NCBI GenBank assembly: GCA_965248755.1
Contig: OZ252149.1
Coordinates: 4,352,001 to 4,416,000, forward strand
DNA length: 64,000 bases
From: Candidatus Latescibacterota bacterium
GTDB taxonomy: Bacteria; Latescibacterota; CBDEFO01
Direction of reading: 5' to 3'
The notes below the pieces were generated by a model, which was not told the origin of the DNA, did no database searches, and saw nothing but the letters and a program-made list of their open reading frames with translations. Position numbers and translations under genes: made by a program. Of the stretch, positions 8,806-51,426 are shown piece by piece. Position 1 is the first letter of the stretch; every line of letters starts with the position of its first letter.

Positions 8806-9852
8806 CTATCGCATCAGGACCATTTTTCTTGTCTTCGCAAAGTCCCACGAGTCCCACGCTGTGATCCTGTAGTAATAAACCCCGCTTGCGACCTCCTTCT
8901 TGTTGTCGTCCAGTCCATCCCAACCAGTATAATGGCTGCCCGCTTCCATATAGGAATTTACAAGAGTCCTTACCTTTTGCCCACCGGTGTTGTATATAGA
9001 TAAGGTTACCATTCCTGCAGATGGGAGATCATAATAGATAGTAGTCAGTGGATTGAAGGGATTTGGATAGTTTTGAAAGAGCCGGTGAACATCAGGCACA
9101 GCTGAGGCTCTATCACCTATAAGCTCTGTCTTTACGGGAATCAGTCCCTCGTTCAACTGGACTTTGCGCAGCCATATGTAAGCGGGGACAGGTAGTCCTG
9201 GAAGCAGGGATTTTACTTTGATAAAGGCAATTTCTCCCTTTCCCCTATATGGCTCAGACCCTGCAAAGGCTATCTTGAGCGTGCTTTCATCGACTTTGCT
9301 TGCAAACAATCCCACCCGGGTCAAATCCGACGGCAATGCGCCTGATATCTCAAGCTCTGTCGGATCAAAGGATATTTCGACATGTCCGGCTATTACCTTT
9401 TCCATATTGTCGATAAGTACAGGAACTTTGAACTCTCCGCTTTCAAGCTTCTGAGCATTACCCATACGCACTGTCCGAACTATAAATGATGACTGCAATC
9501 GGGGATCGTCCCCGACCGGAAGCGTTCTAATCTTTCCCTCTACAAATTGCAGTATCAGTGCGGCGTCGTACGAAGTTATCTGCTCCTGAACCGAACCGGA
9601 ATTCCCGCTTACATTTGAAACTTTGGGTGTTAATCCGGCGTAGTCCGTGCTGTCCTTTTGTCCCACCGCAAATTGGAGTATCAAGGAGGCATCAAACGCC
9701 GATATTTCCCCATTTCCACTTACGTCAAAGTTCGTCTCTGCGTCAGCATTGTCCAGAAAGGAAAAGGATAAGATGGCGAATAAGAAAACGATTCTTAACG
9801 ACCTTTCACATTTTACCATCGCACAGCCTTTCGCTCTCAAATGCCTCTTCAT
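8806..9852 (-). CDS. Secreted dockerin + cohesin + FlgD-Ig/T9SS-like C-terminal domain protein (no catalytic domain)
   Basis: Signal-peptide-like N-terminus; DVSGNGEISAFDASLILQ dockerin pair; cohesin-like FKVPVLID..ISFDPTELEI..KIAFAG; QNYPNPFNP...GVYYYRI...TRKMVLMR tail. Confidence 0.85.
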   Translation of the reverse strand: MKRHLRAKGCAMVKCERSLRIVFLFAILSFSFLDNADAETNFDVSGNGEISAFDASLILQFAVGQKDSTDYAGLTPKVSNVSGNSGSVQEQITSYDAALILQFVEGKIRTLPVGDDPRLQSSFIVRTVRMGNAQKLESGEFKVPVLIDNMEKVIAGHVEISFDPTELEISGALPSDLTRVGLFASKVDESTLKIAFAGSEPYRGKGEIAFIKVKSLLPGLPVPAYIWLRKVQLNEGLIPVKTELIGDRASAVPDVHRLFQNYPNPFNPLTTIYYDLPSAGMVTLSIYNTGGQKVRTLVNSYMEAGSHYTGWDGLDDNKKEVASGVYYYRITAWDSWDFAKTRKMVLMR

Positions 9853-9908
9853 ACTTCTTGGGTGCAGATATTCAAAGGTTTAGACACATGTCTTCCCAGA
9901 TATAAACT

Positions 9909-9937
9909 AATCTACAAGTGGTTATATTAAATGTCAA
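9909..9937 (-). promoter_or_regulatory. Putative sigma-70 promoter for the dockerin-cohesin gene
   Basis: Minus strand TTGACA-N17-TAGATT. Confidence 0.55.
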
Positions 9938-10323
9938 GACAATTCGTGCCTGCCACTTGCACCTGCGATATGTAGAAAGACAAAGTAAGGTGGTGTAATT
10001 TGAAAGAGTAGATTCTCGACAAAGTTTGGAAGGAGTAGCGCGTCGGGAAGGCTCATGCTCACGAGCTTTTGTTCCGCCGTGCAGTCCGCTGATATATCAA
10101 TCCTCACAGTCGAGGTCATAGCCATACGACAAGCCTGCCCCGATGCCTTATGTTCGGACATACAACAGCATTTCTGAGCCCAGCATGGAAAAGGTGAGGA
10201 CCCATTCTTCTACAGTTGAAGATTAGCAGATGCTTCCGAAGTCGACAAGAAGACCACAGCGGACATAAACACTGTTTTCAAGGACAAACCCTTAACATCT
10301 GACACTATATGTGTGATCTTCAA
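9934..10323 (-). pseudogene. Possible small secreted Cys-rich protein interrupted by in-frame TAG
   Basis: TTG at 10323 after GGGGG; hydrophobic leader LKTVFMSAVVFLSTSEASA, TAG at 10210-10212, then KNGSSPFPCWAQKCCCM in frame with ORF 9934..10161. Confidence 0.35.
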
Positions 10324-10441
10324 CGAACTTACCCCCTGCCTTTTTGAACAATCTCCCTGTAGAATAATACGAGATTTTCCAAAAATATGCAGGAGGAATC
10401 TTGATCTGTGCGCACAAAATAGGATGGTTTAGAAAGTGGGA

Positions 10442-10642
10442 TTAACCCACTGCGTCCACATTCAGCCCCAAGTCAGTAATACGAGCTGTTCTTGGAGGGA
10501 CTTGGCCTTCACTTACAAGTTTAAGGAGCATTTCTCCCTGAGATTGTACGGAGTCCTTGACCATATTGAGCCTGGCGGCCTCGAACTTTAACGCGGTCTT
10601 CAGTGTACTTAGAGTGTTTAACGTGTCTATTACATCATCCAT
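10442..10642 (-). CDS. Small protein resembling YjfB/putative motility protein family
   Basis: AGGAGG RBS; 66 aa; VKDSVQSQGEMLLKLV...LGLNVDA pattern; sigma-28 promoter upstream. Confidence 0.65.
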   Translation of the reverse strand: MDDVIDTLNTLSTLKTALKFEAARLNMVKDSVQSQGEMLLKLVSEGQVPPRTARITDLGLNVDAVG

Positions 10643-10708
10643 GATCTGTAATCCTCCTATCTTTAAACGGGGCGCTCACGATGAAGAGAATGGTTGTCTC
10701 CGTATTTA

Positions 10709-10735
10709 TTATCGGCGGATCAGAGGCGAACTTTA
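10709..10735 (-). promoter_or_regulatory. Sigma-28 (FliA/SigD) promoter
   Basis: Minus strand TAAA-GTTCGCCTCTGATCC(15)-GCCGATAA, exact consensus. Confidence 0.85.
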
Positions 10736-10763
10736 GATTATCGTCCAAGTCCGACTTCTATTC

Positions 10764-10792
10764 TTGACTTCATATCCATTTCTGTTTATCTT
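10764..10792 (+). promoter_or_regulatory. Putative sigma-70 promoter of selD
   Basis: TTGACT-N17-TATCTT. Confidence 0.5.
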
Positions 10793-10816
10793 TCTAGAAA
10801 TTCTATATGGCTATAA

Positions 10817-10930
10817 GATTGCTTCGAGGTTCGGCACCACGCAATGACGTTGCTTGCCTTTGCCTTGGTCATAGCGACACCAGCCCCCGATTGAATCTAG
10901 CGGGGTCAATCGGTGGGAGCGAAGCAATCT
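10817..10930. repeat. REP-like palindromic element in selD leader
   Basis: Perfect 11-bp inverted ends AGATTGCTTCG/CGAAGCAATCT; inner CGCAATGAC/GTCATAGCG and CCGATTGA/TCAATCGG arms. Confidence 0.7.
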
Positions 10931-10967
10931 CATACTTCCTCGAGTTCTTAAATCAGGAGACACTTTT

Positions 10968-12035
10968 GTGTTGTCGAAGCGGAACAATTCCAGAGAAGAT
11001 ATAAAGAGATTGACAGAGACCGTCAAATGCGGTGGTTGAGCGTCTAAACTGAGCCCGGCGGAGCTGGAGCAAGTTATATCGCAACTGCCAACGATGGAGG
11101 ATGCGAATCTTTTGGTGGGGTTTAATACGGCAGATGACGCTGGGGTTTACAGGGTGGGAGACGACTTGGCGTTGATCCAGACAGTGGACTTCTTTACGCC
11201 AATAGTGGACGATCCTTTTCTCTTCGGTCAGATAGCCGCCGCCAACGCCCTCTCTGATGTCTACGCTATGGGAGGAAAACCAATAACAGCTCTGAATGTG
11301 ATCTGCTTCCCCAATACGACCTTCGACCTGGAGGTTCTCTCGGAGATTATGAAAGGCGGCATGTCCAAAGTAAGCGAAGCTGGCGCCGTTATCCTGGGGG
11401 GACACACTGTTCGAGATGAGGAGCTAAAATACGGTCTTTCGGTCACTGGTGTCGTCTCTCCCGATAAGGTAGTTACCAACGCCTCTGCACGACCGGACGA
11501 CAAGCTTATACTCACCAAACCCCTGGGCACAGGTCTCCTTGCTGACGCCCTCAAAGACGGCAAACTGACCCAAGACGATATATCCGAGGCTTGTCAAGTA
11601 ATGGCAACCCTGAACGCCTCTGCGTCCGATAGGATGGTCGAATTCGGAGCCACTTCCTGCACGGACATAACCGGATACGGTCTTTTGGGACACGCAGCGG
11701 AGATGGCGCAGGCAAGCGAAGTCGGAATGATACTCTACGCATCGAATATACCTTATTTTGATAAGGCATTACGGCTTGCCTCTGCTCCTCTTACCGGGGG
11801 CTCCCGTGATAACCAAAATTTCGCATCCAAGGTCGTAGACATAGACGCATCTGTCCCCCCGGCTATTATCAACCTTATGTTCAACGCCCAGACCTCCGGC
11901 GGACTCCTTATCTCCATATCCCCCGAGACAGCAGAAGACCTTGTGTCAGCACTTATAAAGGACAAAGTTCCCTCCGCCTCAATAATTGGTGAGGTAACAG
12001 ATGAAAAAAAGGTACGTATAACTGTCCTTCCCTAA
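10968..12035 (+). CDS. selD: Selenide, water dikinase (selenoprotein; UGA=Sec at 11037-11039)
   Basis: AGGAGA RBS and GTG start; RLTETVKCGG-U-ASKLSP in frame with DDAGVY, QTVDFFTPIVDDP, ANALSDVYAMGG, TDITGYGLLGH, QTSGGLL. Confidence 0.95.
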
Positions 12036-12088
12036 AGTCAAACCGATACGAAAAGCTGTCCACTGCTCAATTTAAAGGGTCACTGCAA

Positions 12089-13067
12089 TTGATGACAATT
12101 GAAGAGATAATAGATCGGCTACCAAAGCTATCTGCTGTAATGAACGAGACATGGCTGCGCCGGAAATGTGATTGGGGTGAGAATGATAACTGGGATAAGA
12201 AAGAGGAGTTTATCAAACGGAATCTACCTTGGTTCGAGCAGATTGAGAGAGACCTAACTATTCTTGAGAAATATGTAGGCATCAAAAAACTAAAATCTTG
12301 CTATAGCAAAAAACTCCATAACCAGTCTGATACCCAGAAGTTTATTTTCGAAATCCACGGAGCTGCCCTGTTGGCGAAAACTGGTAGGTGTTTGGATCTA
12401 CATGTCCCCCGAGGAGATGAAAGTGGAAAGGACTTCGATGTGAAAGCAGAGATCCGAGGATATACTATTAATGCAGAGTCCAAGACTCGGAAAGACGAAT
12501 CTCTATTTAATCTGCCACCAAAGTTAGTCTTTGAGAGTAAGTCTCAGATAGCAGGTTTTGGTGACATCCTGGATATTCCTGAGTCGAAGGGAATTAAGGG
12601 AATTCAGGATAGACTATGTAAGGGTCTGAGCCAGCTTCCTGATCAAGGATACAATGTCATTATCTTCGGAAGTATAGAGGGGGAACATGATGTCTTAGAG
12701 GATGCGCTCTTTGGCTAGGTGTACGGGGCGCCCTGGCCTAACCGGAAGACTGGGAAGTCTACCTTTCCTCGTGACCCGGTAGGTGCATTCGGTGCTGGCT
12801 CGGTAGGATTCCAGTCTCTTAGTGGAGTCCTTTGGGTCGAATCGCGACAAGGGACTGGTGATAACTTCCTCAGGCGTGACTATGAGATCTACCGGAATCG
12901 TAATGCTCACCTACCTCTTCCTGCTGACGTTATTGAAGCCATCACAACTGTGATGAACTGCTCCTCCTTCTCCTGCTTGCTCCGACAGTGGAAACCTAGA
13001 CGTTATTGAAGCCATCAGAACTGTGATGAACTGCTGGGCTATCCCTGTGGAAGATCAGGATCTTTAA
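12089..13067 (+). pseudogene. PD-(D/E)XK nuclease-like gene with in-frame TAG and 3' duplication/insertion
   Basis: FEIHGAALL...GKDFDVKA...INAESK motif; TAG 12716-12718 followed in frame by 96 codons; C-terminus disrupted by 73-bp insertion. Confidence 0.55.
12926..13035. repeat. Repeat-spacer-repeat (37/36/37 bp), CRISPR-like geometry
   Basis: GACGTTATTGAAGCCATCA(C/G)AACTGTGATGAACTGCT at 12926-12962 and 12999-13035, one mismatch. Confidence 0.9.
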
Positions 13068-13296
13068 GTAGGAGATTTGCGCTCTGGAGTAGCCATGTCG
13101 CAAAGAGTTGAACCAGTTGAACCTCGCTAATGAGAGTAGTATTTTGTTGTGAGCTAAGATTTGCACAACTCCTATTGACATCCAATATTCTATAGCTGAC
13201 CTTTCTGGGTGGTTTTATCAACTTCCTATTACCCTTAATACAACTTCAGGAGGTCCTTTTGGAGAAGTGGGGAGGGGCGCAGGATACGAAAAGTTC

Positions 13297-13325
13297 TTGA
13301 CTTCTTAGAGCGACAAGAGTATATT
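13297..13325 (+). promoter_or_regulatory. Putative sigma-70 promoter of acs
   Basis: TTGACT-N17-TATATT. Confidence 0.6.
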
Positions 13326-13393
13326 TTTTCGTCGATTTTTGGTAGTGGTTGACATTAAACACTTACAGGTAAATGAAGAAGAAAGGTGACATT

Positions 13394-15427: not shown

Positions 15428-15517
15428 CTTGTCTGCGAAGAGTCGAGTGGCCAGACAGTTTATGTCATTGCTCATCGAAAGGATAACCTTATCAGGTAAA
15501 TACAAAAGAGAACTCAA

Positions 15518-16930
15518 GTGATCCTTTTGAAAGATCGAATAAGGCACATTCACCTTGTGGGCATCTGCGGCACGGCTATGGGAGCCTTAGCCGGGATGCT
15601 CAAATCAGGTGGATATAGAGTCACCGGCTCAGATAGCGTCGTCTATGAGCCTATGAGCACTTTTTTGAGAGCCCTCGAAATCCAGGTTTTTGAGGGCTTT
15701 TGCTCTTCTAACTTGAATCCACCGCCCGATTTAGTCGTCATAGGCAATGTAGTCTCCAGAGGAAACAGGGAGGTCGAAGAGGTTTTAAACAGAAAGATAA
15801 GATACGCCTCTATGCCCGAGGTCATTAAGGACTTCTTCATCAGGGGTAAGCGATCCTTTGTAGTAACCGGGACACATGGAAAGACCACTACGACCTCCCT
15901 TTTGGCCTGGGTCATCGAAAGTTCAGGAAGAGACTCCAGCTTTATGGTCGGCGGTATCCCCTTAAACTTCAACGCCGGATACAAGTTAGGACAAGGAGAG
16001 GACTTCATCATCGAAGGCGACGAATACGACACAGCCTTCTTCGACAAGGGACCCAAATTTCTCCACTATCTTCCCGATGTAGTCATAATCAACGGCATCG
16101 AATTCGACCACGCCGATATATACAGGGATCTCGATCAGATCAAAACTTCCTTCCGACGTCTGATCAACATAATACCCTCAGATGGTCTCCTTGTAGCATC
16201 TGAGGACGATGGGAACGTCTCCCAACTCATTCCCAATGCCTTTTGCCAAGTTAGGACCTTCGGTTTCTCCAAAAATGCCGATTGGAGAGCTGAAAATATG
16301 GACTTTAAGCCTCGTGGCGTATCGTTCGATGTCAGTGGATACGGCAATTTCTTCATACCTCTTATCGGGGAGCACAACGTAAGAAACACACTTGCTGTCA
16401 TTGCTACAGCCGACTTTATAGGACTTTCCCGGGAGCAGATCAAAAGAGGCCTGAGCACTTTCAAAGGTGTAAAGAGACGCCTTGAGATAAGGGGAATTGT
16501 AGATGGGATAACTGTAATAGACGATTTTGCCCATCATCCCACGTCGGTCAAAGAGACTTTGAAAGGGCTCAGAAAATCCAATCCCAAAGTTAGAATATGG
16601 GCACTTTTCGAGCCTGCAAGTGCCACGAACGCAAGGTGCGTATTGGAAGAACGATATAATGAGGCGTTCGACTGTGCTGATAAGATTGTTCTGGCCAAAG
16701 TCCCAAAGCCAGAAAGGGCCGGAGAAGATGAGAAGATGTCTATACAAAGGGTAACAGAAGCCTTGAAAAAAAACGGCAAAGACGCCCTCTATATACCGGA
16801 AGTAGATGATATAGTAGAACATCTTAAAGAGAAGCTGATGGAAGGAGATATTGTGCTTGTAATGACTAACGGGAGCTTCGGTGGAATACACGACAAGATC
16901 CTTAACGTTCTTAAGAGTGTAAAACAATGA
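15518..16930 (+). CDS. mpl: UDP-MurNAc:L-Ala-gamma-D-Glu-meso-DAP ligase
   Basis: HLVGICGTAMGALA, GTHGKTTT, EGDEYDTAFFDKGPKFLHY, DDFAHHPT. Confidence 0.93.
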   Translation: MILLKDRIRHIHLVGICGTAMGALAGMLKSGGYRVTGSDSVVYEPMSTFLRALEIQVFEGFCSSNLNPPPDLVVIGNVVSRGNREVEEVLNRKIRYASMPEVIKDFFIRGKRSFVVTGTHGKTTTTSLLAWVIESSGRDSSFMVGGIPLNFNAGYKLGQGEDFIIEGDEYDTAFFDKGPKFLHYLPDVVIINGIEFDHADIYRDLDQIKTSFRRLINIIPSDGLLVASEDDGNVSQLIPNAFCQVRTFGFSKNADWRAENMDFKPRGVSFDVSGYGNFFIPLIGEHNVRNTLAVIATADFIGLSREQIKRGLSTFKGVKRRLEIRGIVDGITVIDDFAHHPTSVKETLKGLRKSNPKVRIWALFEPASATNARCVLEERYNEAFDCADKIVLAKVPKPERAGEDEKMSIQRVTEALKKNGKDALYIPEVDDIVEHLKEKLMEGDIVLVMTNGSFGGIHDKILNVLKSVKQ

Positions 16931-17853
16931 TACTCAAGCCGCCGCCGCTAGAACCTGAAGATACGATAGGCATCGTCTCCCCTTCGGGAAGAGTGAAAGG
17001 GAAGGATCTCGAAGGCGGGATAGAGTATCTGCAAAAAAGAGGATATAATGTCAAGGTAGGGAAGAGCGCCTACGGGTGGAAGGGGTACTTGGCCGGAGGC
17101 GATGACCAAAGGGCGCAGGATATAAACGATATGTTCTGCGACCCCGAAATTAAAGCTATATTCGCATCCAGGGGTGGGTACGGATCTACCCGAATATTGG
17201 ACAAGATAGACTACGAGCTTATAAGGAGAAATCCCAAGATATTCGTGGGATTTTCAGATACCACAGCCCTTCAGTTGTCTATACTCAAACAGGCAGGGCT
17301 TGTTACCTTTTCAGGAGTTCTCGCAGCTGTGGATATGAAGGATGCAAAGATGGATCGGCTTACTGAAAAGACGTTGTGGGAACTGCTTACGAAAGGAAGG
17401 ATAGATGATATAGAAGGACTGGAAGTTATAAGAGGGGGATGTGCGAAAGGGAAACTTTTGGGCGGTTGTCTTTCAATTATATGTTCCCTTCTGGGGACCG
17501 CCTACCAGCCCGATTTAATGGGGGCCATCCTCTTTCTTGAAGACGTAGACGAAGCGCCCTACCGCATAGATAGGATGTTAACGCAACTCAGTCTGTCCGG
17601 CCTTCTGCAACAAGTTAGCGGGATCATCTTAGGGCAATTTAAAGACTGCTTCGATAGAGATGAATCCTCCGAGGTTGAAGAACTTTCCTTAAAGGACATG
17701 GTAGATGACCTAATGTGCGACCTGAACATCCCCATCCTATCCGATCTTCCCTACGGGCATTTTGCAAGTAGGGTCGTTCTTCCCATGGGCGTAAATGCTA
17801 GGATAGACGGAAATACAGGTAAGTTGGCAATGACTGAGAAAGCAGTAGATTAG
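16927..17853 (+). CDS. ldcA: LD-carboxypeptidase (peptidase S66)
   Basis: RGGYG, GFSDTT, LFLEDV, YGH catalytic motifs; coupled to mpl. Confidence 0.92.
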   Translation: MILKPPPLEPEDTIGIVSPSGRVKGKDLEGGIEYLQKRGYNVKVGKSAYGWKGYLAGGDDQRAQDINDMFCDPEIKAIFASRGGYGSTRILDKIDYELIRRNPKIFVGFSDTTALQLSILKQAGLVTFSGVLAAVDMKDAKMDRLTEKTLWELLTKGRIDDIEGLEVIRGGCAKGKLLGGCLSIICSLLGTAYQPDLMGAILFLEDVDEAPYRIDRMLTQLSLSGLLQQVSGIILGQFKDCFDRDESSEVEELSLKDMVDDLMCDLNIPILSDLPYGHFASRVVLPMGVNARIDGNTGKLAMTEKAVD

Positions 17854-20244: not shown

Positions 20245-23200
20245 ATGAGCTTCCGCGACTGGGCCAAAAATGCTTTCTTGCTGATAGCAGTTTTGTCGAT
20301 CGCTATTCCTCACCTCTCCTACAGCCGGACGATCACCGTATCCCCCATCGGGGTAGCCGATTATCCGACCATCGGTCAGGCTATCGCGACAGCTTTGTCG
20401 GGGGATACCATTCGGGTCAGCCCCGCGACGTATCGGGAGTCGGTGGGGTTGAAGTCGGGTGTGGTGGTGTTGGGAAATGGCTACGAGAATACCCGCATTG
20501 AGATAGACATTCTGGCCAATCCTGTGTACGCTGTGAACGTCTCGCATGCCAAGATCTCAGGCTTTACCCTCGCCTACACGGGCACCGAGATACCAGCTAC
20601 GGTCTATGTCCAGTCCTCCCGGGTGACGATCTCCAATTGCCGGATTCTCAACACTACAGTTTCGGGGGTCTACGCTATAGAGGAATCCGAAGTGACTGTA
20701 GAAGGCTGTATTGTGGAACAGAACGAAGGCCACGGCGTTGTCACATCTGGCGGTTCGAAGGGGAGTATTCGGGACAGTCAGATCCAGGACAACCAGGTAG
20801 ATGGGCTTTTTTTCGGCGGAGCGTCGTTTGGAGAGGTAACGGGGAACACTGTGACCGGGAATGGAGCCAACGGGGTTGAGGTGATTGGAGCGGGACCAGT
20901 GACGATGTCCGGCAACGTGACCTCGGGCAACACCTATGCTGGTATCCGAGCAGCAGACACCTCGCAAGTGGACGTTCGGGGGAACACGACAGTGGAGAAT
21001 GGGACGTATGGGATATTGGTTCAGTCAGGGAGCGTGGCCTCCATCGTGGACAATATTGTGGTCTGGAATTCGATTGGTGGTATCTACACGAAGGGCGGAG
21101 AGGCAGGGGATGGGATCATCTCGGAGATCGGTTACAACGATGTCTGGGACAACGGCGTCACGGTTCAAATGACCGGCAACTTATCCAACTACCAGGGTTT
21201 TCAGGCGCCGGCAGAGGACATGTCCGTCAACCCTTTCTTTTTAGACGATGCGGCAGGGGACTATCGCCTGCGGTCCAATTCGACCCTGATCGGTGCGGGA
21301 AGGGACGGAGGGACCGTCGGCGCACTGGGCATTGTGTCCCCTGAAGAGGAAAGTGCCGTCCCTTCACCGGTCTTCATCCGGGCGTTTCCTGACACTGCCT
21401 ACTGGACGCTGCTGCAGGGACAGGCCTGGCTGAGCGTGGATATCTACATCATGGTGGGGAACCTCGTCAGCTTTATACCGGACGAAGTGGAAGTGAGGTT
21501 CTTCGGGGAGGACGGGGGTATCGTCGTGTCAGAACGCATCCCGGCCTCGGACTTCAGAGCGACATCTGCTGTAATCGAGACGGATGTGACGAACCTTTAG
21601 ATGGTGTGGGATGCGACGCTGACAGAGCTGAAATCCGCAACGCCACTGGAGGTTCCCCCAGGAGGACGGGACGTTTTTCTTCCCAAAGAGCACCCCTTTC
21701 CCCAGGCCGATCTCCCCGTGAGAGCTGAGTACGTAGTCCGGGGGCAGGAGGGGGGCAGAACCGTAGAACTGGTGCGCGAAGTCGTCCCTGAAATCTACCG
21801 TCAGCGCACTGACCTTCGCTTCCCCATGCGCGGGGGTGGATGGCAGGTCATCGCTGGTCCCCCTCAGGACAATCACCGGCACCGTGCGACAACTTTCCGG
21901 GGCAGAACCCTGGCGATGCCCGGCCGCTACGCGATGGACATCTGGAGGAGCTACCGGGGGCTTTATCGGACCGATGGACTCACCAAGGAGGACTACTGGG
22001 GGTACGGGGCTCCCATGTATGCACCGGGGGTCGGCCGTGTCGTCTTTGTGAGGAAGGACGCAGATGAGCCGGCCTTCGGAGAGGAGATTCCCGGGGGTGA
22101 GTCCAACACCGTCGTGATCGACCACCAGAACGGCGAGTACAGCTTTATGCTCCATCTTAAGAAGGGCTCGGTAGCGGTAGAGGTCGGACAGTGGGTGGAA
22201 CAAGGCGATCTCATAGGGGCGCTGGGCAATTCGTTCGACAGGTGGAACGTCCCCCACCTCCACTTTGAGGTCAGGGACAGCTACATTTGGCCGGGTGAGG
22301 GCCTTCCGGTGGCCTTCACCGGAGGAAGGATCCTGGGCACGGAGATTCAGGATGGCATGCTATTCAGTGGGGCTTTCTTTGAGGAGGAATCCCTCGGGCC
22401 GGTTCTCCACGTGGCGGCAGACGGGAGTGCGGACTACAGGACCATTAGTGACGCGATGGACGTGGCTGTCATGGGTGATACAGTGCGGGTAGCTCCGGGC
22501 ACATATCGGGAGACTGTATGGTTGAAGTCCGGGGTGGTGGTGCTGGGAAGTGGCTACGAAGGTACCCGCATAGAGATAGACATTCTGGCCAACCCTGTAT
22601 ACGCCGTGAACGTCTCAGATGCCAAGATCTCCGGCTTTACCCTCGCCTACACCGGCACGGAGTCACCGGTCACGGTCTTTGTCGACTCCTCCCAGGTGAC
22701 GGTCGCCAACTGCCGGATTACCAACACCACTGTTTCAGGGGTCTACGCCGTGAATGGATCTAAAGTGACCGTCGAAGGGTGTCTTGTGGAACAGAATAAG
22801 GGTTTTGGTATTGCCATATATGGTGGTTCGGAGGGGTATATCTGGGACAATCAGATCCGGGATAATCGGTTGAATGGGGTTGTCTATGCCGAAGCGTCCT
22901 TTGGGCAGCTGATGGGGAACACTATCACCGGGAATAAGGCCAACGGACTGGTGATCGCTGGTGCCGGAGCGGTGACCGTTACCGGCAACGTGCTTGCGCG
23001 AAACAGCTGGGCGGGCATCATAAGTCTTACGGAGTCCGAATTGGAGGTTCGGGGAAACACGATCGTGGAGAACGGGACGTATGGGATTTTGGTTCTGTCG
23101 AGGAGTGTGGCTTCCATCGTAGACAATATCGCGGCCAGCAATCTGATCGGGATTTCCATACAGGGCGGCGAAGAGGGAGATGGCGTCGTCTCAGAGATCG

Positions 23201-24267
23201 GGTACAATGATGTATGGAATAACCGGGGTGGAAACTACTTAGGGTTTACTTCTACCCCTGAGTTGGATCTCTCCGTAGACCCACGATTCGTCAATGCGGA
23301 GGCCGGCGATTACCACTTATGGCGCGACTCTCCTCTACTTGGAGCCGGACAAGCCGGGGGTACAATCGGAACGTTCGGTATTCTGGAGGCCAGACGTCTG
23401 CCGGGAGACGTGACGGACAATGGTGTGGTAACAGCCTACGATGCTGTCCATATTCTCCAACACACAGTGGGACTGCTGACGTTGACCGGTGAGGATTCTG
23501 TAGTTGCAGATGTGAGTGGCGACACCACCATCTCTGCGTACGATGCTTCACTGGTGCTGCAATATGTAGTCGGACAAATCTCTCGTCTCCCTGTGAGGGG
23601 AGGACAGACAACAAAGGTAGCATATGCCACTCGGACGGTCCGGATGGGTGAGATGAAGGCGTTGTCGAATGGACGGATGTGTCTGCCCATCTTGATAGAC
23701 GAGATGGACGCTGTAGTCGCTGGAGAGATGACGCTGTCCATTGAGGAAAATGGAGGAAATGTGACAGTCAGAAGGACGCACTTGACTCCTGGCTATCTGC
23801 TTGCCAGCAACGTCCAGAACGGTAGTATCAGAGCATCGTTTGCCGGAGCCGAGTTGAGTACCGGCTCAGGGCCGGTGCTGGAGGTGGTGTCGGACGCAGG
23901 ACTCCTTAGTACCCTGAGGCTGGAGCGTGTGTCGCTGAACGAAGGGAGGATACCAGTCCGGATCGAGGGAGTCAAATCTGAGACACCCACAGTGTATCGG
24001 CTCAGTCAAAACTATCCAAATCCGTTCAACCCCCATACGGTGATCTATTACGAGCTTCCTGTTCAAAGCCATGTCGATATATCTGTCTATAATATGATAG
24101 GACAGAAGGTTGCAATACTGTTGGATAAAGGGATAGAAGTAGGTACCTACTCTTTAATCTGGGATGGCAAAGATGACAACGGAGAGGACCTTGCCAGCGG
24201 AGTCTATCTGTATCGGATAGAAGCGGATGGATTTGTGCAGACAAGGAAGCTGGTCTTGATGCGTTAG
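20245..24267 (+). pseudogene. Large secreted protein (beta-helix - M23 peptidase - beta-helix - dockerin - cohesin - FlgD/T9SS-like tail) split by one in-frame TAG at 21598-21600
   Basis: AGGAGG RBS and signal peptide only in the first ORF; M23 HLKKGS..GNS..PHLHF, dockerin GDVTDNGVVTAYDA/DVSGDTTISAYDA and QNYPNPFN tail only in the second; same frame. Confidence 0.8.
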
Positions 24268-28694: not shown

Positions 28695-28956
28695 GCCACA
28701 AGTTTCCCAGCTACACCGCAGATTCTGAAGGATTTAACTCATCAGTTTTCTCCAGGAAGTTCTCCGCCCGCTTCGCTACTTCGTGGTTTGCTAGCTCCCC
28801 AGCAAGGTGGCCACGCCACCCAGTGGATGGTTTGGTGCCATTTCGTGCCCCTTGCAATCACCCCCTGTATCCCCCCTTGGTAAGGGCGGAATGAAAGGGG
28901 AGTGGCAGAAACGCACTAAGTACCCACGTCACCTTTTTGCGGCTTTGTCAAAAAGC

Positions 28957-29300
28957 ATGTATCAATCAATCTTGTTATTCTTCCTGACACTTGCTACAGG
29001 ATCGATATTAGATGGCAGCACGGCTCAGGTTGTAAGGAGAGAGCATCTCATGGTTGCCGACTTCTCAAATGTCGGAGAACCCGGTCAGTTCCCATCTGGA
29101 TGGGCTTCCAGGGGAGGAGACGGGATAGAGGTGTATCGCCTTGAATCTGAAGATGGTGATCTCTTTTTAAGAGCCGCATGCAAAGGGAAGTCCGTAACTA
29201 TCGGGCTTAAGTACAGAGTCAACCTGAGGATTCATCATATCTTGCAGTGGAGGTGGAGAGTCCACAAAATCCCTTCGTCCGCCGACGAACGAGAAAGGTG
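28957..29300 (+). pseudogene. DUF3047-like exported protein, 5' fragment
   Basis: Signal peptide, VADFS..FPSGW..VYRLESEDG..FLRA..LQWRWRVHKIP..ADER, then breaks off. Confidence 0.6.
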
Positions 29301-29762
29301 CTCTTTCAGGAGAGGGTAAACGACAGGTTCTACGGATGGGAAACCACCGCAGGGATCAAATTCCAACTCCTTACGGAAATGAAAGGTGTGAAGCGACGGG
29401 ATCCTTCTGCCGCTATCGGGTTTAGGTACTCCCGTCCGTTAAACTGGACAACGCAGGTCAACGCCCGATTCGAGTTCAGCACGCCTTTTACAGGAGACTT
29501 TGCAGAACTCTACAACACGTCCTTTATCACGGACTTCATCTACGAACTTACAAACAAAATAGATTTCACGCTCCGCTACCTGGTAAGGGCCAATAAATCT
29601 AATAAAGATATAGACACAGACACTGTCAACTCATTAGGGGCCGCGATTACCTTCTTCCTGGAGAACAAGATCAATCTCACTATAAGCGAACAGTTCGACA
29701 AGGAGGACAAAAAAAGGATAGAACAGCAGTTCAATATAACGCTCAATTATAGAGTGTTCTGA
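29298..29762 (+). pseudogene. 3' fragment of an outer-membrane beta-barrel-like gene
   Basis: Amphipathic beta strands ending FNITLNYRVF (terminal Phe); no own start or signal peptide. Confidence 0.55.
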
Positions 29763-30484: not shown

Positions 30485-31210
30485 TCATCTGGGAACCCAA
30501 CTGGCGAAGTAGGTCGGCGACCACTTGCGCGTCAGTTGAAAAACGCGCTCCCTTACACAGCCGTGGTCTGGGGAAACCTCGATGTCGATATACGCCTCGG
30601 CCCCCGCTACAGTGGGAAATTCCGCCAGCCAGACGCGGTGCCAGGCAGCTTGGGGGGCCATCAGCTTAAAACACTCCAGCCGCATCAAACTATGCTTGTG
30701 GGTTACAGAGCGCATGCCCTCGATGTAGTCATCTTCCACCCGCTTTTCTCCGGAGCCGTGTGTCGGCTCCCCACGTTCGAAGAGCACTACAACCACACTG
30801 CCAGAGTCCACCCTTAGTTCTGGAACTTGGCGGGGATCAACGTCTTCCGGTACGATCACCGAAGGTGCAGCGTTCGCTACCCAGTCGGTGCAAAACTCCG
30901 GACGACAGTTACGCGCCAGGTAGTATTCGTAGTACCCATAGCGCCCATAGGGCGGCGCCATCTCTGCCTCAATCCATGCCTCGGCGCCCGCTAACGCCGG
31001 AAACTCAATGGTCCAGAAGCGCTCCCAAGTGCTTTGCGGCGCCATCAAACGGAACCCTTCGAGGCGCTGCAGCCCGTATTTGTGCGCAATTCCCAGCATC
31101 AGATCCACGTGCTCCTGCTGATAAGCTTTCTGTTCACGGGGCGACAAGCTGTGCCAGCTCAATAGCCGGCCACCTTTGTAGAGCACGACAATAGATTCGT
31201 CAGCTTCCAT
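30485..31210 (-). CDS. Hypothetical two-repeat protein, dimeric alpha+beta barrel-like
   Basis: Internal repeat RLE.F.LMAPQ..W.R.W..EFP..AGAEA.I in both halves. Confidence 0.7.
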   Translation of the reverse strand: MEADESIVVLYKGGRLLSWHSLSPREQKAYQQEHVDLMLGIAHKYGLQRLEGFRLMAPQSTWERFWTIEFPALAGAEAWIEAEMAPPYGRYGYYEYYLARNCRPEFCTDWVANAAPSVIVPEDVDPRQVPELRVDSGSVVVVLFERGEPTHGSGEKRVEDDYIEGMRSVTHKHSLMRLECFKLMAPQAAWHRVWLAEFPTVAGAEAYIDIEVSPDHGCVRERVFQLTRKWSPTYFASWVPR

Positions 31211-42260: not shown

Positions 42261-42262
42261 TA

Positions 42263-42638: not shown

Positions 42639-44294
<1,656 letters not shown>

Positions 44295-44320
44295 TAAGAA
44301 GTTGAGGTCAATTCTCTTCG

Positions 44321-44356
44321 AGCCCCCATAGGAACTCCCTGTGGGGGCTTCTTATT
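44321..44356 (+). terminator. Rho-independent terminator after groEL
   Basis: AGCCCCCATAGG-loop-CCTGTGGGGGCT then TCTTATT. Confidence 0.85.
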
Positions 44357-44473
44357 GCGGACAAAAAATGCTCTGCAATTAACAAAAATTACGCTATGGG
44401 GTATAATTCTGAAAGAGAGGGGAAGAATACAGATTGTCAAGTTTGCTGAAATTCAAAGCAGAGGGAAAGGGCC

Positions 44474-45352: not shown

Positions 45353-45365
45353 CAGGGCGTGATAG

Positions 45366-46208: not shown

Positions 46209-46353
46209 AATTACCCTATTGGCCCTCTACTGTGAGCCGCATCACAGTACAGATGCTAATATGTGATTACATTTGACAATAAGGCAATTTTGAATTACTC
46301 GTTGCCGGAGCGTTTTTCGGATTTTTAGGGCTTTAACAATAAAAAGGCATACG

Positions 46354-49300
46354 ATGAGAACAATGCTCATATTTCCGGCTCTGCTCCTTGTAATACTATC
46401 CTTCATAATTGATGTTCAAGCACAACAAAACAGTAAGTACGTTGAACATCAAGTGATTGTTAAGATGAGTGGAAAGATTCAAGCAGCGGATATCGTAACT
46501 ATGAGAGAGAACCTTAATGCTTCAGTGCTCAAGAAATTTTGGATCGTTAACGCTGAACTTTGGGAAACACCCGGAATTACCGTGGAAGATGCTATCTATC
46601 AATATCGTAATGACCCTCGTATCGAATATATTGAACCGAACTATCGTGTCTGGGCTGTTCAAACTATCCCGAACGATACCAGCTTTTCTCAGCTTTGGGG
46701 ATTGCACAATATCGGGCAGATAGGCGGAACAGTCGATGCAGACATCGATGCTGTTGAGGCCTGGGACATCCAAACCGGAGATTCCGTGTTGGTGGGCGTA
46801 ATAGATACAGGCGTAGACTGGACGCACGAAGACCTTGCGGATAATATCTGGACTAATCCGGGAGAGATCCCAGATAACGGTATTGATGATGATGGAAACG
46901 GTTACATCGATGACGTCAGAGGATGGGACTTTGTAAACAAGGATAATGATCCTATGGACGACAATGGTCACGGAACTCACGTAGCCGGGACCATTGCTGC
47001 TGTCGGAAATAATGGAATAGGCGTTGTTGGAGTCTCTTGGTCGGCACAAATAATGCCGCTTAAGTTTTTGGAAGCCGATGGTTCCGGAATTACCTCCGAT
47101 GCGATTCTGGCAATAGAATATGCGATGATTATGAGGTCAAAATTAACTAACAATAGTTGGGGTAGCAGTGGATTCTCCCAAGCTTTATATGATGTGATAG
47201 CTGTTTCAGGGAACGCTAACATCCTCTTCATAGCCGCCGCAGGGAATGGAGGTGATGATAACATCGGAGATGATAATGATCAGGTTCCCCACTATCCCTC
47301 CAACTACGATTTGGACAATATCATTTCCGTTGCGTCTACAGATCACAACGATGTAAGATCTCCCTTCTCCAACTTCGGCCTTACCTCAGTCGATCTAGGA
47401 GCTCCGAGCTCAAGTATTCTCAGCACGGTGCCAGGAGATACTTACAGCTTTCTCATCGGGACCTCTATGGCTACACCACATGTGTCCGGCGCTGCCGCTT
47501 TGATTTGGGCTCAATATCCAGATCTGACGAATCTTCAGGTCAAGAATAGGATTATGAGCACTGTAGATCCGATCCCTGCGTTAGGTGGCAGATCGGTTAC
47601 AGGTGGAAGACTGAATGCCTTTGGTGCATTAGCAGGACCGGATAGTATCCCACCGGATACCGTGACCGATTTAGCCGCAGCAGACCCGACCTCAAATTCT
47701 ATAACGCTTACATGGACAGCCAGCGGCGATGACAGCACCTTCGGCACAGCAGCGTATTATGATATCCGATATGTAACCTCTCCGATCGATTTCGGGAATT
47801 TTGATTTGGCTACTGAAGTTTTGAACGAACCGGATCCTCAAGAGGCTGGTTCTACGGAGACGTTCACAACGGGTGGACTAGGTTTCAATACGACCTACTA
47901 TTTTGCCCTGAAAGTTTTTGATGAGCAGGGGAATGGGTCAGAAGTCTCTAACTCGCCATCGGCTGCCACGTTGGGCATACCCGATATTTCAGTTACACCG
48001 GATTCTCTGAGCGATAGTCTGCTCACAGCAAGCGCATCTACTCAAATCCTGACTATATACAATGTAGGAGAGGGAACGTTAGACTTTACTTTTCCGGATT
48101 TTGCTTCTGCCGCTTTATTAAACACGCCAGGGATTGAAAGGAACGACGTCTCAAGTCGTTTTGAGCATTTAGAACTCGAAAAGGGGCTGACAGATCTGCA
48201 AGAGGGGAATCCCCTCCTTTTAGGAGCAGGAGGCCCAGATGGCTTTGGCTATCGGTGGATCGATAGCGATGAACCGGGTGGACCCATCTTTAACTGGATT
48301 GAAATATCGAAAGTCGGGACATCGATATTGTTACTTGATGATGATGTTGAGGAAGTCGCTCTGCCTTTTACATTTCCGTTTTATGGAGAAGCAAAGACAA
48401 CCCTCAAGATCTCCTCGAATGGCTATCTTGCGTTTAGTGCAGATGGGACAGATTTCTCAAATGATCCTATTCCAGATCCTGTTGATCCCAATGACTTAAT
48501 TGCGCCATTTTGGGACGATTTGAATCCGAGCGCTGACGACACTATCTTTTACTATCACGACACTGATCAAAATCGATTTATTGTGCAGTACACTGGGCTT
48601 CCTCACTATGATGTTGGAGGGCCCTACACTTTCCAAGTTATCTTGTACCCTGATGGCAGTATGCTCTTTCAGTATCTGGATATGCTCCCTCCTTTGGATA
48701 GTGCCACGATAGGCGTCGAAAACCTAGATGCTTCCGATGGCTTACAAGTAGCTTTTAACACAGACTTTATCCATGATAGTCTCGCCGTTAGTATCTCAGC
48801 TATTCCTCAATGGTTAAGCCTTAATCCTGTATCTGGCACTCTTCTACCGGGTTCATCGGCGGACATTGCTGTAAACTTCGATGCAACAGGTTTGAACGGC
48901 GGCAATTATGATGCACATATTGTGATTGCAAGCAACGATCCGGATGAGCCACAGGTACGAGTTCCTGCGCATCTGCATGTGACAGGTGTGCCGGATATTG
49001 CTGTTTCCCCGGATACTTTGGATTATGGCTTTGCCCTCATTGGAGCATCTGTCGACGATACGCTGATTGTCTCGAATATAGGGACCGATACATTGACGGT
49101 GAGCAGCATTGTATCGGACAATCCAAATTATACCGTAGATTTAACCGGTCTTAGCTTATCTCCCGGAGAAAGTCAGGAGGCGTTGGTAAGTTTTGCGCCG
49201 GTAGATACAGGAATAAGTAGCGGGACATTGACGATAACAAGTGATGATCCGGATGCACCCATGGTGACGGTGACGCTAACTGGCGAGGGATTAATTGCAC

Positions 49301-51426
49301 CGAATATTTCTGTTTCTCCAGATTCGTTAAGTGCAGATTTGCGAACTGGAGAGACATCGGAACAGTTATTGACAATCAAGAACACCGGTGGCAGTGATTT
49401 GACTTTTGATATTTCGATTGAAGGATTGGCAGCTGCTTCAGTGTTGGTAGAAGTTAGTTCCAGGAGTTTCGAGCGAAGATTAACTATTCAATTGCAGGAT
49501 AATCCACAAAAGGAATGGAGCGACTATCGGCAAATTCGTCAGGTAAAGATGGCGATGAAGAAGCTACATCGCAAGGAAGATGCTCTGAGAACGTCGCTTC
49601 CTGTTGTGATAGAGGATCCTGTTGGTGATGGCGGCGTTGTTGACGTAACCGTTCTTCGGGGCGCCAGTACATCGAACAAACTTCAGATCGAGATGCAATT
49701 TAATACAGAAATTGATCCATTCAATTTTGGCGGTTTTCTTTCACTTGATATAGATCAAAACCCCAGTACAGGTCTTCCTCCAACTTTCGGGTTCGCTGGA
49801 CAAGATATCGGTGCAGATTATGAATTTCGGTTTTTCACAGTTAGCAGCGGTTTCGTGGGACTTTATGATGTCATATCAGGTTTTGTAGGTGCCTATCCTG
49901 TTGAAGTTGGGATACATACCTTGCGTTTTTCTGCACCGCTGTCTGATATTGGCAATGATGATGGAAACATGGATGTCACGGGAGCTATAGGAGACGCATT
50001 TGGCTCTACGGATTGGTTCCCAGATGCAGGTCATGGAACTATCAATGGCGTCAGTTGGTTGTCAGTAACGCCCACCTTGGGCACCGTGCCAACAGGTAGC
50101 AGCGTGGACATTGCAATAATCTTTGATACCACGGACTTGGACATCGGTGATTACAACGCCAACATCGTGGTGAGAAGCAACGATCCGGATGAGCCAGAAG
50201 TTCGAGTTCCTGCACATGTGCATGTAAGGGAAAATAGCTCACCCGGATCCTTTACCCGATTACTCCCTGCAGATAGCAGTCTTGTCCTGCCTCAAGCCGT
50301 AATCTTCCGCTGGACAGCGGCTCCCGATGTGGATATGATTATCTATTCGCTGTCCATCAGCGTAAATGGGATCGATATGACCTTCACCTTGAAAGACACT
50401 ACACTGACGCTTGATTTCCAGACGTTCGGCTTGCCGAACGATCAGCTTCCGTTGACATGGTCTGTGCTCGCCTCCGACGGCATTTCAACCTCAGCCCCTA
50501 CCAACAGGCAAGGACACTTCACGCTGGATAACCTCTTCCTGTTTGGCGATCCTTCGGGCAACATTTCAATCAGCGCTTTTGATGCCACATTGGTGCTGCG
50601 ACACTCCGTGGGACTTTTGACGCTGGCAGGCAGTGCCGCGCTGGCCTCGGATGTCTCCGGAAATGGCCTGATCAGTGCCTTTGATGCCTCCTTGATCCTG
50701 CAATACGTCGTCGGGATCATCGACTGTTTTCCTGTCGCTCAGGGCTGTGGGGCACCACTGGCTAAGAGGACAAGCGTTAGAGGTACACTCGGCTGGTCTG
50801 ATGTCAGATCGGTCGATCTTTCTGAACTTGTTAGTCTGCCTATCCTCTGGAGCGGAGAAGTAGGAAGGGTTACTTCAGCGCAGTTCACCGTCCAGATTGA
50901 CCCGACGCAGGTGACGGTTGAAAAAGTAGTCGCTCATGTACCTCAAGACTGGCAGTTGGTCTATAGCTTGGGGGACAGTGTGCTGTATGTAGCGATGGCC
51001 GGGGTGACCCCAATCTCGGCAGGCGATCTGGCAACTATCACACTGCAGGTGCACGATCCAGTAGCACAGGTAACACTGCACGGTGTGGGGTTCGTGAATG
51101 AAAACGCTGTACAGGAGCTCGGCGCGGTTGCGATCTCACAGGCGCCGACAGAATATGTCTTAGAGCAGAACTATCCCAATCCGTTCAACCCTACCACAGA
51201 GATTATGTATCAGCTGCCAGGGGCTTCGGAGGTACACCTGGTCATCTACGACCTATTGGGTCAAAAGGTGCGGACTCTGGTGAACACTCAACAGGCGGCG
51301 GGGTTCTATAGAGTCCAGTGGGACGGACAAAATGACGCGGGTGTGGATGTCGCATCGGGCGTCTATGTGCATCGAATCTGGACGAAGAACTATCAGCAGA
51401 CGAGGAAGATGTTGCTGTTGAAATAA
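46354..51426 (+). CDS. Secreted S8 (subtilase) peptidase with Fn3/Ig-like repeats, dockerin, cohesin and FlgD/T9SS-like tail
   Basis: VIDTG, HGTHVAG, GTSMATPHV triad; SNDPDEP Ig repeats; GDPSGNISISAFDA/DVSGNGLISAFDA dockerin; QNYPNPFNP..TRKMLLLK. Confidence 0.93.
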   Translation: MRTMLIFPALLLVILSFIIDVQAQQNSKYVEHQVIVKMSGKIQAADIVTMRENLNASVLKKFWIVNAELWETPGITVEDAIYQYRNDPRIEYIEPNYRVWAVQTIPNDTSFSQLWGLHNIGQIGGTVDADIDAVEAWDIQTGDSVLVGVIDTGVDWTHEDLADNIWTNPGEIPDNGIDDDGNGYIDDVRGWDFVNKDNDPMDDNGHGTHVAGTIAAVGNNGIGVVGVSWSAQIMPLKFLEADGSGITSDAILAIEYAMIMRSKLTNNSWGSSGFSQALYDVIAVSGNANILFIAAAGNGGDDNIGDDNDQVPHYPSNYDLDNIISVASTDHNDVRSPFSNFGLTSVDLGAPSSSILSTVPGDTYSFLIGTSMATPHVSGAAALIWAQYPDLTNLQVKNRIMSTVDPIPALGGRSVTGGRLNAFGALAGPDSIPPDTVTDLAAADPTSNSITLTWTASGDDSTFGTAAYYDIRYVTSPIDFGNFDLATEVLNEPDPQEAGSTETFTTGGLGFNTTYYFALKVFDEQGNGSEVSNSPSAATLGIPDISVTPDSLSDSLLTASASTQILTIYNVGEGTLDFTFPDFASAALLNTPGIERNDVSSRFEHLELEKGLTDLQEGNPLLLGAGGPDGFGYRWIDSDEPGGPIFNWIEISKVGTSILLLDDDVEEVALPFTFPFYGEAKTTLKISSNGYLAFSADGTDFSNDPIPDPVDPNDLIAPFWDDLNPSADDTIFYYHDTDQNRFIVQYTGLPHYDVGGPYTFQVILYPDGSMLFQYLDMLPPLDSATIGVENLDASDGLQVAFNTDFIHDSLAVSISAIPQWLSLNPVSGTLLPGSSADIAVNFDATGLNGGNYDAHIVIASNDPDEPQVRVPAHLHVTGVPDIAVSPDTLDYGFALIGASVDDTLIVSNIGTDTLTVSSIVSDNPNYTVDLTGLSLSPGESQEALVSFAPVDTGISSGTLTITSDDPDAPMVTVTLTGEGLIAPNISVSPDSLSADLRTGETSEQLLTIKNTGGSDLTFDISIEGLAAASVLVEVSSRSFERRLTIQLQDNPQKEWSDYRQIRQVKMAMKKLHRKEDALRTSLPVVIEDPVGDGGVVDVTVLRGASTSNKLQIEMQFNTEIDPFNFGGFLSLDIDQNPSTGLPPTFGFAGQDIGADYEFRFFTVSSGFVGLYDVISGFVGAYPVEVGIHTLRFSAPLSDIGNDDGNMDVTGAIGDAFGSTDWFPDAGHGTINGVSWLSVTPTLGTVPTGSSVDIAIIFDTTDLDIGDYNANIVVRSNDPDEPEVRVPAHVHVRENSSPGSFTRLLPADSSLVLPQAVIFRWTAAPDVDMIIYSLSISVNGIDMTFTLKDTTLTLDFQTFGLPNDQLPLTWSVLASDGISTSAPTNRQGHFTLDNLFLFGDPSGNISISAFDATLVLRHSVGLLTLAGSAALASDVSGNGLISAFDASLILQYVVGIIDCFPVAQGCGAPLAKRTSVRGTLGWSDVRSVDLSELVSLPILWSGEVGRVTSAQFTVQIDPTQVTVEKVVAHVPQDWQLVYSLGDSVLYVAMAGVTPISAGDLATITLQVHDPVAQVTLHGVGFVNENAVQELGAVAISQAPTEYVLEQNYPNPFNPTTEIMYQLPGASEVHLVIYDLLGQKVRTLVNTQQAAGFYRVQWDGQNDAGVDVASGVYVHRIWTKNYQQTRKMLLLK

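Follow-up and report, generated by a model that had tools for sequence, protein, structure and literature searches.

A dockerin-cohesin-sorting domain tail predicted to dock in cis recurs in the genome of a Latescibacterota bacterium

Cohesin-dockerin pairs are commonly taken as joints between different proteins. We analysed a window of 64,000 nucleotides from a Candidatus Latescibacterota bacterium (contig OZ252149.1, positions 4,352,001 to 4,416,000; G000:C1:4352001-4416000, where G000 is the host genome), in which three genes, here named A, B and C, end in the same tail: a dockerin, a cohesin and a C-terminal domain (CTD) of a type IX secretion system, or T9SS. The host genome holds 22 complete copies of this tail, far beyond chance. 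Structure prediction makes it probable that the dockerin docks, in some form, on the cohesin of its own chain. The tail is a variant of non-cellulosomal cohesin-dockerin systems and not a cellulosome.

Results and Discussion

Identity of the tail domains

The tails, with the genes or gene parts that carry them, lie in the window as follows.

8806..9852, minus strand: gene A, signal peptide, dockerin, cohesin and T9SS CTD, without cargo
9517..9732, minus strand: dockerin of A, divergent, under the Pfam cut-off, custom hidden Markov model (HMM) E 7e-24
9118..9483, minus strand: tail cohesin of A, preceded by a linker with Arg in place of the usual Lys
8809..9099, minus strand: T9SS type A sorting domain of A, TIGR04183 25.6 bits (cut-off 23)
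21601..24267, plus strand: 3' part of gene B, 888 residues without signal peptide, comprising M23, beta-helix, dockerin, cohesin and CTD
23401..23595, plus strand: dockerin of B, above the Pfam cut-off, fold matching 4uyp_B
23632..23970, plus strand: tail cohesin of B, fold close to 2xdh, 1g1k and 2vn5, with docking on the dockerin before it predicted
23986..24264, plus strand: T9SS type A sorting domain of B, TIGR04183 37.6 bits
46354..51426, plus strand: gene C, 1690 residues, signal peptide, prodomain and S8 subtilase, then further modules
50542..50739, plus strand: dockerin of C, from Pfam and custom HMM scans
50779..51129, plus strand: tail cohesin of C, of a divergent subgroup common to two paralogues
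51145..51423, plus strand: T9SS type A sorting domain of C, TIGR04183 35.1 bits

In each of them two dockerin repeats are followed by a beta domain of about 120 residues and a QNYPNPFN...RK-x-x-L terminus. Positions 9-12 of the two repeats read SAFD/TSYD in A, TAYD/SAYD in B and SAFD/SAFD in C. Asp stands at positions 1 and 12 in the F-hand loop-helix repeats of the window dockerins, and the Asp at position 12 is invariant in both repeats across 244 tails. Against Pfam Dockerin_1 (PF00404, cut-off 22.9), B scored 31.5 bits and A 17, and C gave 21.2 bits (below) in one scan and 25.2 (above) in another. No window protein reached Pfam Cohesin (PF00963, cut-off 24.1), C coming to 16.8 bits; many paralogous tail cohesins of the genome passed it. 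An AlphaFold2 model of the B tail (predicted local distance difference test, pLDDT, 93.6) had 2xdh as its top Foldseek match (E 4.8e-7, template modelling (TM) score 0.62), followed by 1g1k and 2vn5, and it matched the dockerin 4uyp_B with a TM score of 0.86 (on target), a root-mean-square deviation of 1.3 A and 38% identity. Identity of the cohesin to solved structures was 21% at most, and the top Atlas clusters for the tail were cohesin/dockerin. On the strength of these models the middle beta domain is a cohesin fold, a jelly-roll beta-sandwich, and the first a dockerin fold, as had been proposed in a first-pass annotation made from the sequence alone.

The sorting domain named in that annotation was likewise borne out, with all three CTDs above the TIGR04183 cut-off. 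Among T9SS genes of the host, SprA scored 766 bits (cut-off 200) and PorU 712 bits (cut-off 420); the PorU gene adjoins a PorV-family gene, and four PorV/PorQ-family genes lie above their cut-off of 90. By sequence, then, the tail closes with a T9SS type A CTD, and SprA, PorU and PorV are encoded in the same genome.

The tail in the host genome

An inventory was made with iterated custom HMMs over the host genome, class I being the dockerin class of A, B and C. It gave 107 open reading frames (ORFs) with a CTD match and 24 with a class-I dockerin. The genome-wide count for which the first-pass annotation had called came to 22 full tails among these 24 proteins, 11 with the plain dockerin-cohesin-CTD layout and 11 with one or two further cohesins upstream; the other two proteins are one cut before the CTD and one dockerin alone, in a broken gene. 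The cohesin directly follows the dockerin in 23 of the 24, and 12 carry a spare cohesin upstream of the dockerin. A crude hydrophobicity rule, which misses at least one signal peptide seen by eye, assigned signal peptides to 15 of the 24, including A and C, and none to the tail-bearing ORF of B.

Class-I cargoes are mostly adhesin-type repeats with few peptidases. Catalytic Pfam domains (S8, M23 and GSDH) occur in just 3 of the 24 proteins, indicating that the system is not mainly proteolytic, and the remaining members carry NHL, FG-GAP, PD40, TIG, ASH/HYDIN-immunoglobulin (Ig) or cadherin modules, or no cargo. Pfam matches to Ntox33, DPPIV_N, SGL and phytase-like families on propeller proteins were set aside as repeat cross-hits, not toxins or enzymes. 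A glycoside hydrolase Pfam match was found neither in the 24 class-I proteins nor in the 25 of 26 proteins scanned from a second dockerin class (class II, below). The non-cellulosomal character claimed earlier is upheld by this result; the proteolytic or peptidoglycan-lytic complex claimed with it describes two of the 24 members, one of them broken.

A protein of 1787 residues (G000:C1:4523412-4528775) carries five cohesins and a CTD without a dockerin match, and a second multi-cohesin protein (3784517-3792403) has five to six cohesins. A strand-6 Ala and an Asn-Glu motif are common to the tail cohesins, the upstream cohesins and those of the five-cohesin protein. Because of this protein and the spare upstream cohesins of 12 others, the system is not scaffold-free, contrary to the first-pass annotation. 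In a cohesin tree the position classes were not single clades (three changes for tail cohesins), and we took no origin argument from it. The five-cohesin, scaffoldin-like protein belongs to a three-gene cluster with lamin-tail-domain proteins (G000:C1:4517386-4528775), which recall the lamin-tail domain of the proposed planctosome anchor (PMC6461901).

Docking in cis or binding in trans

When dockerin, linker and cohesin of B were modelled alone, AlphaFold2 gave a predicted TM score (pTM) of 0.91 and a pLDDT of 95.6, with 88 over the linker block; all five models of the dockerin and cohesin lay between 94.5 and 95.6. By calculation, independently placed domains of such sizes cap the pTM at 0.63-0.70, and a value of 0.91 requires an inter-domain error of about 2.5 A. 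Adding the CTD lowered the pTM to 0.75, with a pLDDT of 79 in the coil before the CTD, which fits a rigid dockerin-cohesin pair and a loose CTD. The linker, measured from the closing Pro of the dockerin to the first cohesin strand, spans 10-30 residues in 243 of 244 aligned rows (one at 10, mode 15) and 13-27 residues in 57 further rows.

We next consider co-evolution between the two domains. Mean-field direct coupling analysis (DCA) of 244 tails (effective number 215; 488 hits, 263 past coverage filters) recovered intra-domain contacts. Between dockerin and cohesin, the strongest coupling (z 7.4) linked position 18 of repeat 2 to the end of cohesin strand 6; strand 6 was also coupled to position 21 of repeat 1 (z 5.5), and the Asn-Glu motif to position 3 of repeat 2 (z 4.7). 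These couplings fall on recognition positions. Positions 17, 18, 21 and 22 were counted as interface positions together with positions 10/11 of described pairs (below), these four and the strand numbering being mapped from the strand order of the model. As the best dockerin-CTD and cohesin-CTD controls reached 5.7 and 5.9, only the coupling at z 7.4 exceeds both. The DCA top 20 contained 3-6 interface pairs, where 0.6 would be expected; six swap controls gave 0-2. The mirror pairs with the other repeat had z values of -1.0 to 0.5, though both repeats keep the same residues. The pattern persisted in subsamples and in the combined 298 rows. In described pairs, recognition involves dockerin positions 10/11 and helices 1 and 3, and the 8-3-6-5 face of the cohesin (PMC8063739). 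Modest as it is, the co-evolution suggests one binding orientation imposed by a tether, and thereby favours cis docking over polymerisation.

Polymerisation was the reading of the first-pass annotation, which envisaged head-to-tail chains; it is disfavoured here because AlphaFold2 predicts the dockerin on its own cohesin, an outcome named in that annotation as one that would overturn it. In such a polymer each dockerin would bind the tail cohesin of the next chain and the extra upstream cohesins, present in 12 paralogues with two or more cohesins, would branch a surface meshwork. Class matching (below) and same-chain co-evolution fit homotypic trans binding equally well, near-identical recognition residues are kept in both dockerin repeats, and the cohesin of Ruminococcus bromii Amy4 binds its own dockerin, with multimerisation proposed (PMC4611034). 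We nevertheless consider a polymer rather unlikely: the pTM of 0.91 comes with an ordered linker, the minimum linker length and single orientation are such as a tether would impose, a tethered partner would be at high local concentration, and PorU-anchored chains would each already be fixed to the membrane at the cohesin C-terminus. The contacts of cis docking would equally arise in a trans chain formed by domain swapping.

A second dockerin class with split components

Class-II dockerins gave 26 matches in the host genome, 21 of them within three residues of the C-terminus and without a cohesin-CTD tail, on the same kinds of cargo and with signal peptides as in class I. A stand-alone signal peptide-cohesin-CTD gene (4253206-4254069) adjoins two class-II dockerin genes on the same strand (locus G000:C1:4253206-4260989; L121:3209-10989) and shares 35% identity in cohesin and CTD with a fused class-II dockerin-cohesin-CTD tail. 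Class II thus follows a split pattern, with dockerins and cohesins on separate chains. From its sequence and position, the stand-alone gene product is a candidate anchor or export carrier for the roughly 21 CTD-less proteins. A third cohesin type is represented by a further two stand-alone cohesin-CTD genes (G000:C1:3775777-3776751 and 3783558-3784385), which lie near a cluster of giant multi-cohesin proteins (3784517-3804566). A further gene (G000:C1:3376082-3376750; L015:9082-9750), directly following a fused class-II tail gene, encodes a signal peptide, a class-II cohesin and a short C-terminal TWG-type tag, with no CTD.

Across 151 genomes of the host's phylum, the class-II cohesin profile matched 87 and the class-I dockerin-cohesin profile 27. 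Of 12 loci picked via the class-II cohesin alone, nine have a class-II dockerin directly upstream. Adjacent dockerin/cohesin pairs (n = 37) were I-I in 27 cases, II-II in 10 and mixed in none, most class-I loci having been picked with a paired dockerin and cohesin query. In four more proteins a further divergent dockerin stands before the last cohesin. Given a cassette that would both dock on itself and anchor, and a split form in the same genome, the tail is likely the fused form of a two-part system of dockerin-tagged cargo and cohesin-CTD anchor. Cohesin-CTD modules might even be general T9SS carriers in these candidate phyla. On their own they would export CTD-less dockerin cargo piggy-back; within fused dockerin-Lys-cohesin-CTD tails they would provide a self-capped anchor, made by one linker cut into a calcium-switched, exchangeable display; and the several orthogonal classes would form a surface address code. 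We hold this broader scheme to be rather unlikely.

A model of a self-capped, exchangeable anchor

The linker often contains a Lys. Of 22 host tails, 21 have one in the 14 residues that follow the dockerin and 5 have one ahead of the CTD (background 0.30); in other genomes the corresponding numbers are 20 and 11 of 30 tails. In the window it is found at two places.

23614..23616, plus strand: linker Lys of B, conserved, a candidate cut site or structural contact
50764..50766, plus strand: linker Lys of C, in an LAK motif

We tentatively propose, at a little under even chances, that the tail is a self-capped, surface-anchored unit made exchangeable by a cut at the linker Lys. Four steps would be involved: 1) export, for which A and C have signal peptides, the tails have TIGR04183 CTDs and the genome has SprA, PorU and PorV; 2) by analogy with Bacteroidota, a PorU cut before the CTD, with the cohesin C-terminus joined to a surface glycolipid; 3) predicted folding-back of the dockerin, through a linker of 12-20 residues, onto the 8-3-6-5 face of the cohesin in one orientation; and 4) as the weakest step, a cut in the linker, after which the cargo-dockerin may remain on its own anchored cohesin or may shift to same-class spare cohesins of the 12 paralogues and the five-cohesin protein. 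Going by the predicted binding, the tether would then be calcium-dependent and exchangeable.

Several observations weigh against this model. Single-chain AlphaFold2 may fold inter-chain contacts into one chain, so that cis docking and a domain-swapped trans arrangement are inseparable by it, and the docking face is assigned indirectly. The co-evolution is modest and its interface set was chosen after a first look; in 54 held-out sequences one of six pairs was clearly repeated (z 3.8; others -0.9 to 1.2), and the top 20 contained one interface pair (expectation 0.6). The linker Lys is absent from gene A, a small-residue-Lys pattern occurs in just 53 of 102 homologues of set A1, Poribacteria tails carry an Ala-Pro-Ser motif in its place, and the paralogues in the Lys counts are not independent. 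On the secretion side, a PorZ-like gene scores 217 bits, below its cut-off of 260, PorU is itself the sole C25 protease that the genome encodes, and Bacteroidota PorU cleaves right before the CTD (PMC11969387, PMC4804311). Lastly, gene B is disrupted in this genome, as are both B and C in a sister lineage. A Lys-specific gingipain was considered as the linker protease and rejected, the sole C25 gene found being PorU.

The high-confidence cis model would equally suit a permanent clasp, in which dockerin and cohesin never separate and form a rigid, protease- and force-resistant spacer beside the anchor, like the Ig superfamily (IgSF) domain of gingipains, the spare cohesins serving other dockerins. 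Half-dockerins precede the cohesin in many homologues (first repeat absent or truncated in 41 of 243 rows), the lone class-I dockerin without a cohesin is single and in a broken gene, and the linker Lys could be a structural contact. Both the clasp and this role for the spare cohesins seem unlikely to us, since the spare class-I-type cohesins keep the binding-face motif with no free class-I dockerin to bind, and class II has this very design divided over two separate genes.

A different use of the Lys would be as the point at which cohesin and CTD are discarded, having served as a long export signal and chaperone that shields the dockerin in the periplasm; the leftover C-terminal dockerin would then dock on scaffold-like proteins, as cellulosomal enzymes do. 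Such a product would resemble the 21 dockerin-terminal class-II proteins. Several dockerin classes unrelated to one another have a Lys at the corresponding place as well, and a T[ADGE][VI] motif lies ahead of the CTD in 14 of 26 proteins with a CTD only, compared with 4 of 27 cohesin-CTD junctions. Known PorU sites, however, lie in the coil before the folded CTD (PMC11969387), and such a coil is predicted here, with the pLDDT of 79 given above; stand-alone cohesin-CTD proteins would be destroyed on loss of the cohesin; and the linker Lys is not universal. We rate this pro-piece as very unlikely.

If the proposed self-capped unit is real, a tethered plug in its own socket would sit on about 22 secreted proteins per genome and occur in several uncultured Gram-negative lineages, and cohesin-dockerin pairs would gain a further role as capping, releasable anchoring or carrier in type IX secretion. 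The question bears on the role of non-cellulosomal cohesins and dockerins and on how CTD-less proteins might use the T9SS, and genome-based claims of 'cellulosome-like' systems or polymers need a cis-versus-trans check.

Distribution in other genomes

Among 141 proteins examined, 87 end in dockerin-cohesin-CTD. By source names the tail occurs in Ca. Latescibacteria (42% identity to A), Calditrichaeota and Poribacteria, and further in Eisenbacteria, KSB1, Gemmatimonadota and Bacteroidota. A contig scan keyed on CTD motifs gave 76 loci, mostly CTD-only; counting only full-tail matches, it added tails in named contigs of Bacteroidota, Ignavibacteriae, Melioribacter and Poribacteria. The class-I dockerin-cohesin profile had 699 cluster representatives at E 1e-30, including multi-copy single-domain proteins. 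Judged from these matches, the tail is common in uncultured Gram-negative lineages. In many homologues (P0031, P0037, P0040-P0043 and others; some Poribacteria) a single dockerin repeat precedes cohesin and CTD, and the repeat retained is the one adjoining the linker.

Comparison with known systems

A cohesin and a dockerin on one chain with self-recognition (Amy4), and peptidase-linked non-cellulosomal systems as proposals, are already known from the accessible literature. In Amy4 of the R. bromii amylosome (PMC4611034), as here, catalytic cargo, cohesin and dockerin share a chain; binding of the cohesin to its own dockerin was demonstrated, and other scaffoldins coexist. Amy4 differs in being a single, starch-degrading protein of a Gram-positive organism, with a C-terminal dockerin and taken as multimerising, whereas the host has 22 paralogues, the order dockerin-cohesin-T9SS CTD and predicted cis docking. 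The planctosome of Nemodlikiaceae (PMC6461901) shares non-cellulosomal modules, an adaptor with dockerin and cohesin, and peptidases proposed as cargo. It is hypothetical, and as presented in the accessible text it has a proposed lamin-tail anchor, no T9SS CTD, and HYR between dockerin and cohesin; Supplementary Figures 13-14 of that paper may show similar architectures. Ca. Stygibacter (Cloacimonadota; PMC8542988), also of a Gram-negative candidate phylum, has dockerin-bearing S8 and C25 peptidases and, like the host, a multi-cohesin scaffoldin-like protein with a CTD. It keeps the classical division of labour, and the accessible text describes neither a per-cargo dockerin-cohesin-CTD tail nor cis docking; Table S3 of that paper may show similar architectures.

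Both folds of the tail are common to type I pairs (4uyp, 2vn5, 1ohz) and the non-cellulosomal cohesin 2xdh of Archaeoglobus fulgidus. Type I partners, however, belong to different chains and in many cases bind in two orientations, whereas here a tether of about 15 residues joins them and one orientation is inferred. T9SS type A cargo such as gingipain IgSF-CTD has a signal peptide, a CTD, the SprA/PorV/PorU route and an Ig-like domain before the CTD (PMC4804311, PMC11969387); in the host, a candidate-phylum member with putative T9SS processing, that domain is a cohesin paired with a dockerin. Non-cellulosomal surface use together with adhesin-type modules is also described for dockerin/cohesin proteins of anaerobic methanotrophic archaea (ANME; PMC9012536) and for Chlorobium Cag_2037/2038 (bioRxiv 10.64898/2026.03.19.712371), in archaeal or type I secretion system contexts; the accessible text on both systems describes binding between different proteins and mentions no T9SS tail. 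A multi-cohesin scaffoldin, the five-cohesin protein, is shared with the cellulosome, in which dockerins are on enzymes and cohesins apart, in contrast to the 23 of 24 class-I dockerins here that share a chain with a cohesin. No dockerin-cohesin-CTD tail or natural cis docking was described in the accessible parts of the literature searched, with most subscription journals outside that search.

State of genes A, B and C

The likely start of gene A at 9819 gives 337 residues, and its copy in the sister lineage (P0001) is intact at 96% identity. The other features of genes B and C are as follows.

20245..21600, plus strand: 5' part of gene B, signal peptide and beta-helix, 451 residues, terminating at a nonsense TAG
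21598..21600, plus strand: in-frame TAG that interrupts gene B; sister genome G001 and runs X5 and X7 have Trp at this codon
22003..22278, plus strand: M23 peptidase domain of B, 59 bits (cut-off 28.7), activity predicted
46777..47565, plus strand: S8 catalytic domain of C, PF00082 203 bits, with DTG, HGTH and GTSMA motifs

Gene B is broken in both lineages, since the TAG splits it here and G001, X5 and X7, which keep the Trp codon, have a frameshifting insertion at 22826. An ATG comes immediately after the TAG, and contigs from runs X1 and X3, possibly of the source sample, carry the same TAG as the window. The tail-bearing ORF of 888 residues being without a signal peptide, the B product is probably not secreted in this strain. 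Read-through of the TAG was rejected because no CUA-anticodon tRNA is among the 48 genes listed by ARAGORN in the genome and G001, X5 and X7 encode Trp at this position. No RNA data set was listed for gene B, an outcome without bearing on its expression. A selenocysteine tRNA lies at G000:C1:2906382-2906479.

Gene C is intact here and has lost its CTD through a frameshift in the sister lineage. All motifs of the Asp-His-Ser triad were found in its S8 domain, which is followed by fn3, NIDO-like and ASH/HYDIN Ig modules, dockerin, cohesin and CTD. The cargoes had been named at first pass as a subtilase (C) and an M23/beta-helix protein (B). The tail is present in all three genes; what failed was the view of 20245-24267 as one secreted protein. 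A DDE_Tnp_1_4 transposase of 468 residues has 47 copies in the genome (e.g. C1:618651, 3741949, 3747010), several inside or beside tail genes, which suggests a recent burst of insertion sequences with decay of surface genes.

Neighbouring genes in the window

Directly after gene C, at 51723-54257, is a gene for a TMEM260-like protein O-mannosyltransferase with tetratricopeptide repeats, upstream of GDP-mannose dehydratase-like and glycosyltransferase genes; by its annotation this enzyme could glycosylate secreted cargo. About 2.4 kb upstream of gene B, at 15518-17853, a Mur ligase gene stands beside one for an S66 LD-carboxypeptidase (peptidoglycan recycling). ORFs 12089-12718 and 30485-31210 had no match in Pfam or NCBIfam scans. 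Ribosomal protein S1 (4214-6598) has a long acidic C-terminal array of repeats of about 37 residues, which aligns to G001 at several offsets, and copy number may differ. At 58142-58933 and 28807-29762, consecutive short ORF pairs resemble single genes split by frameshifts.

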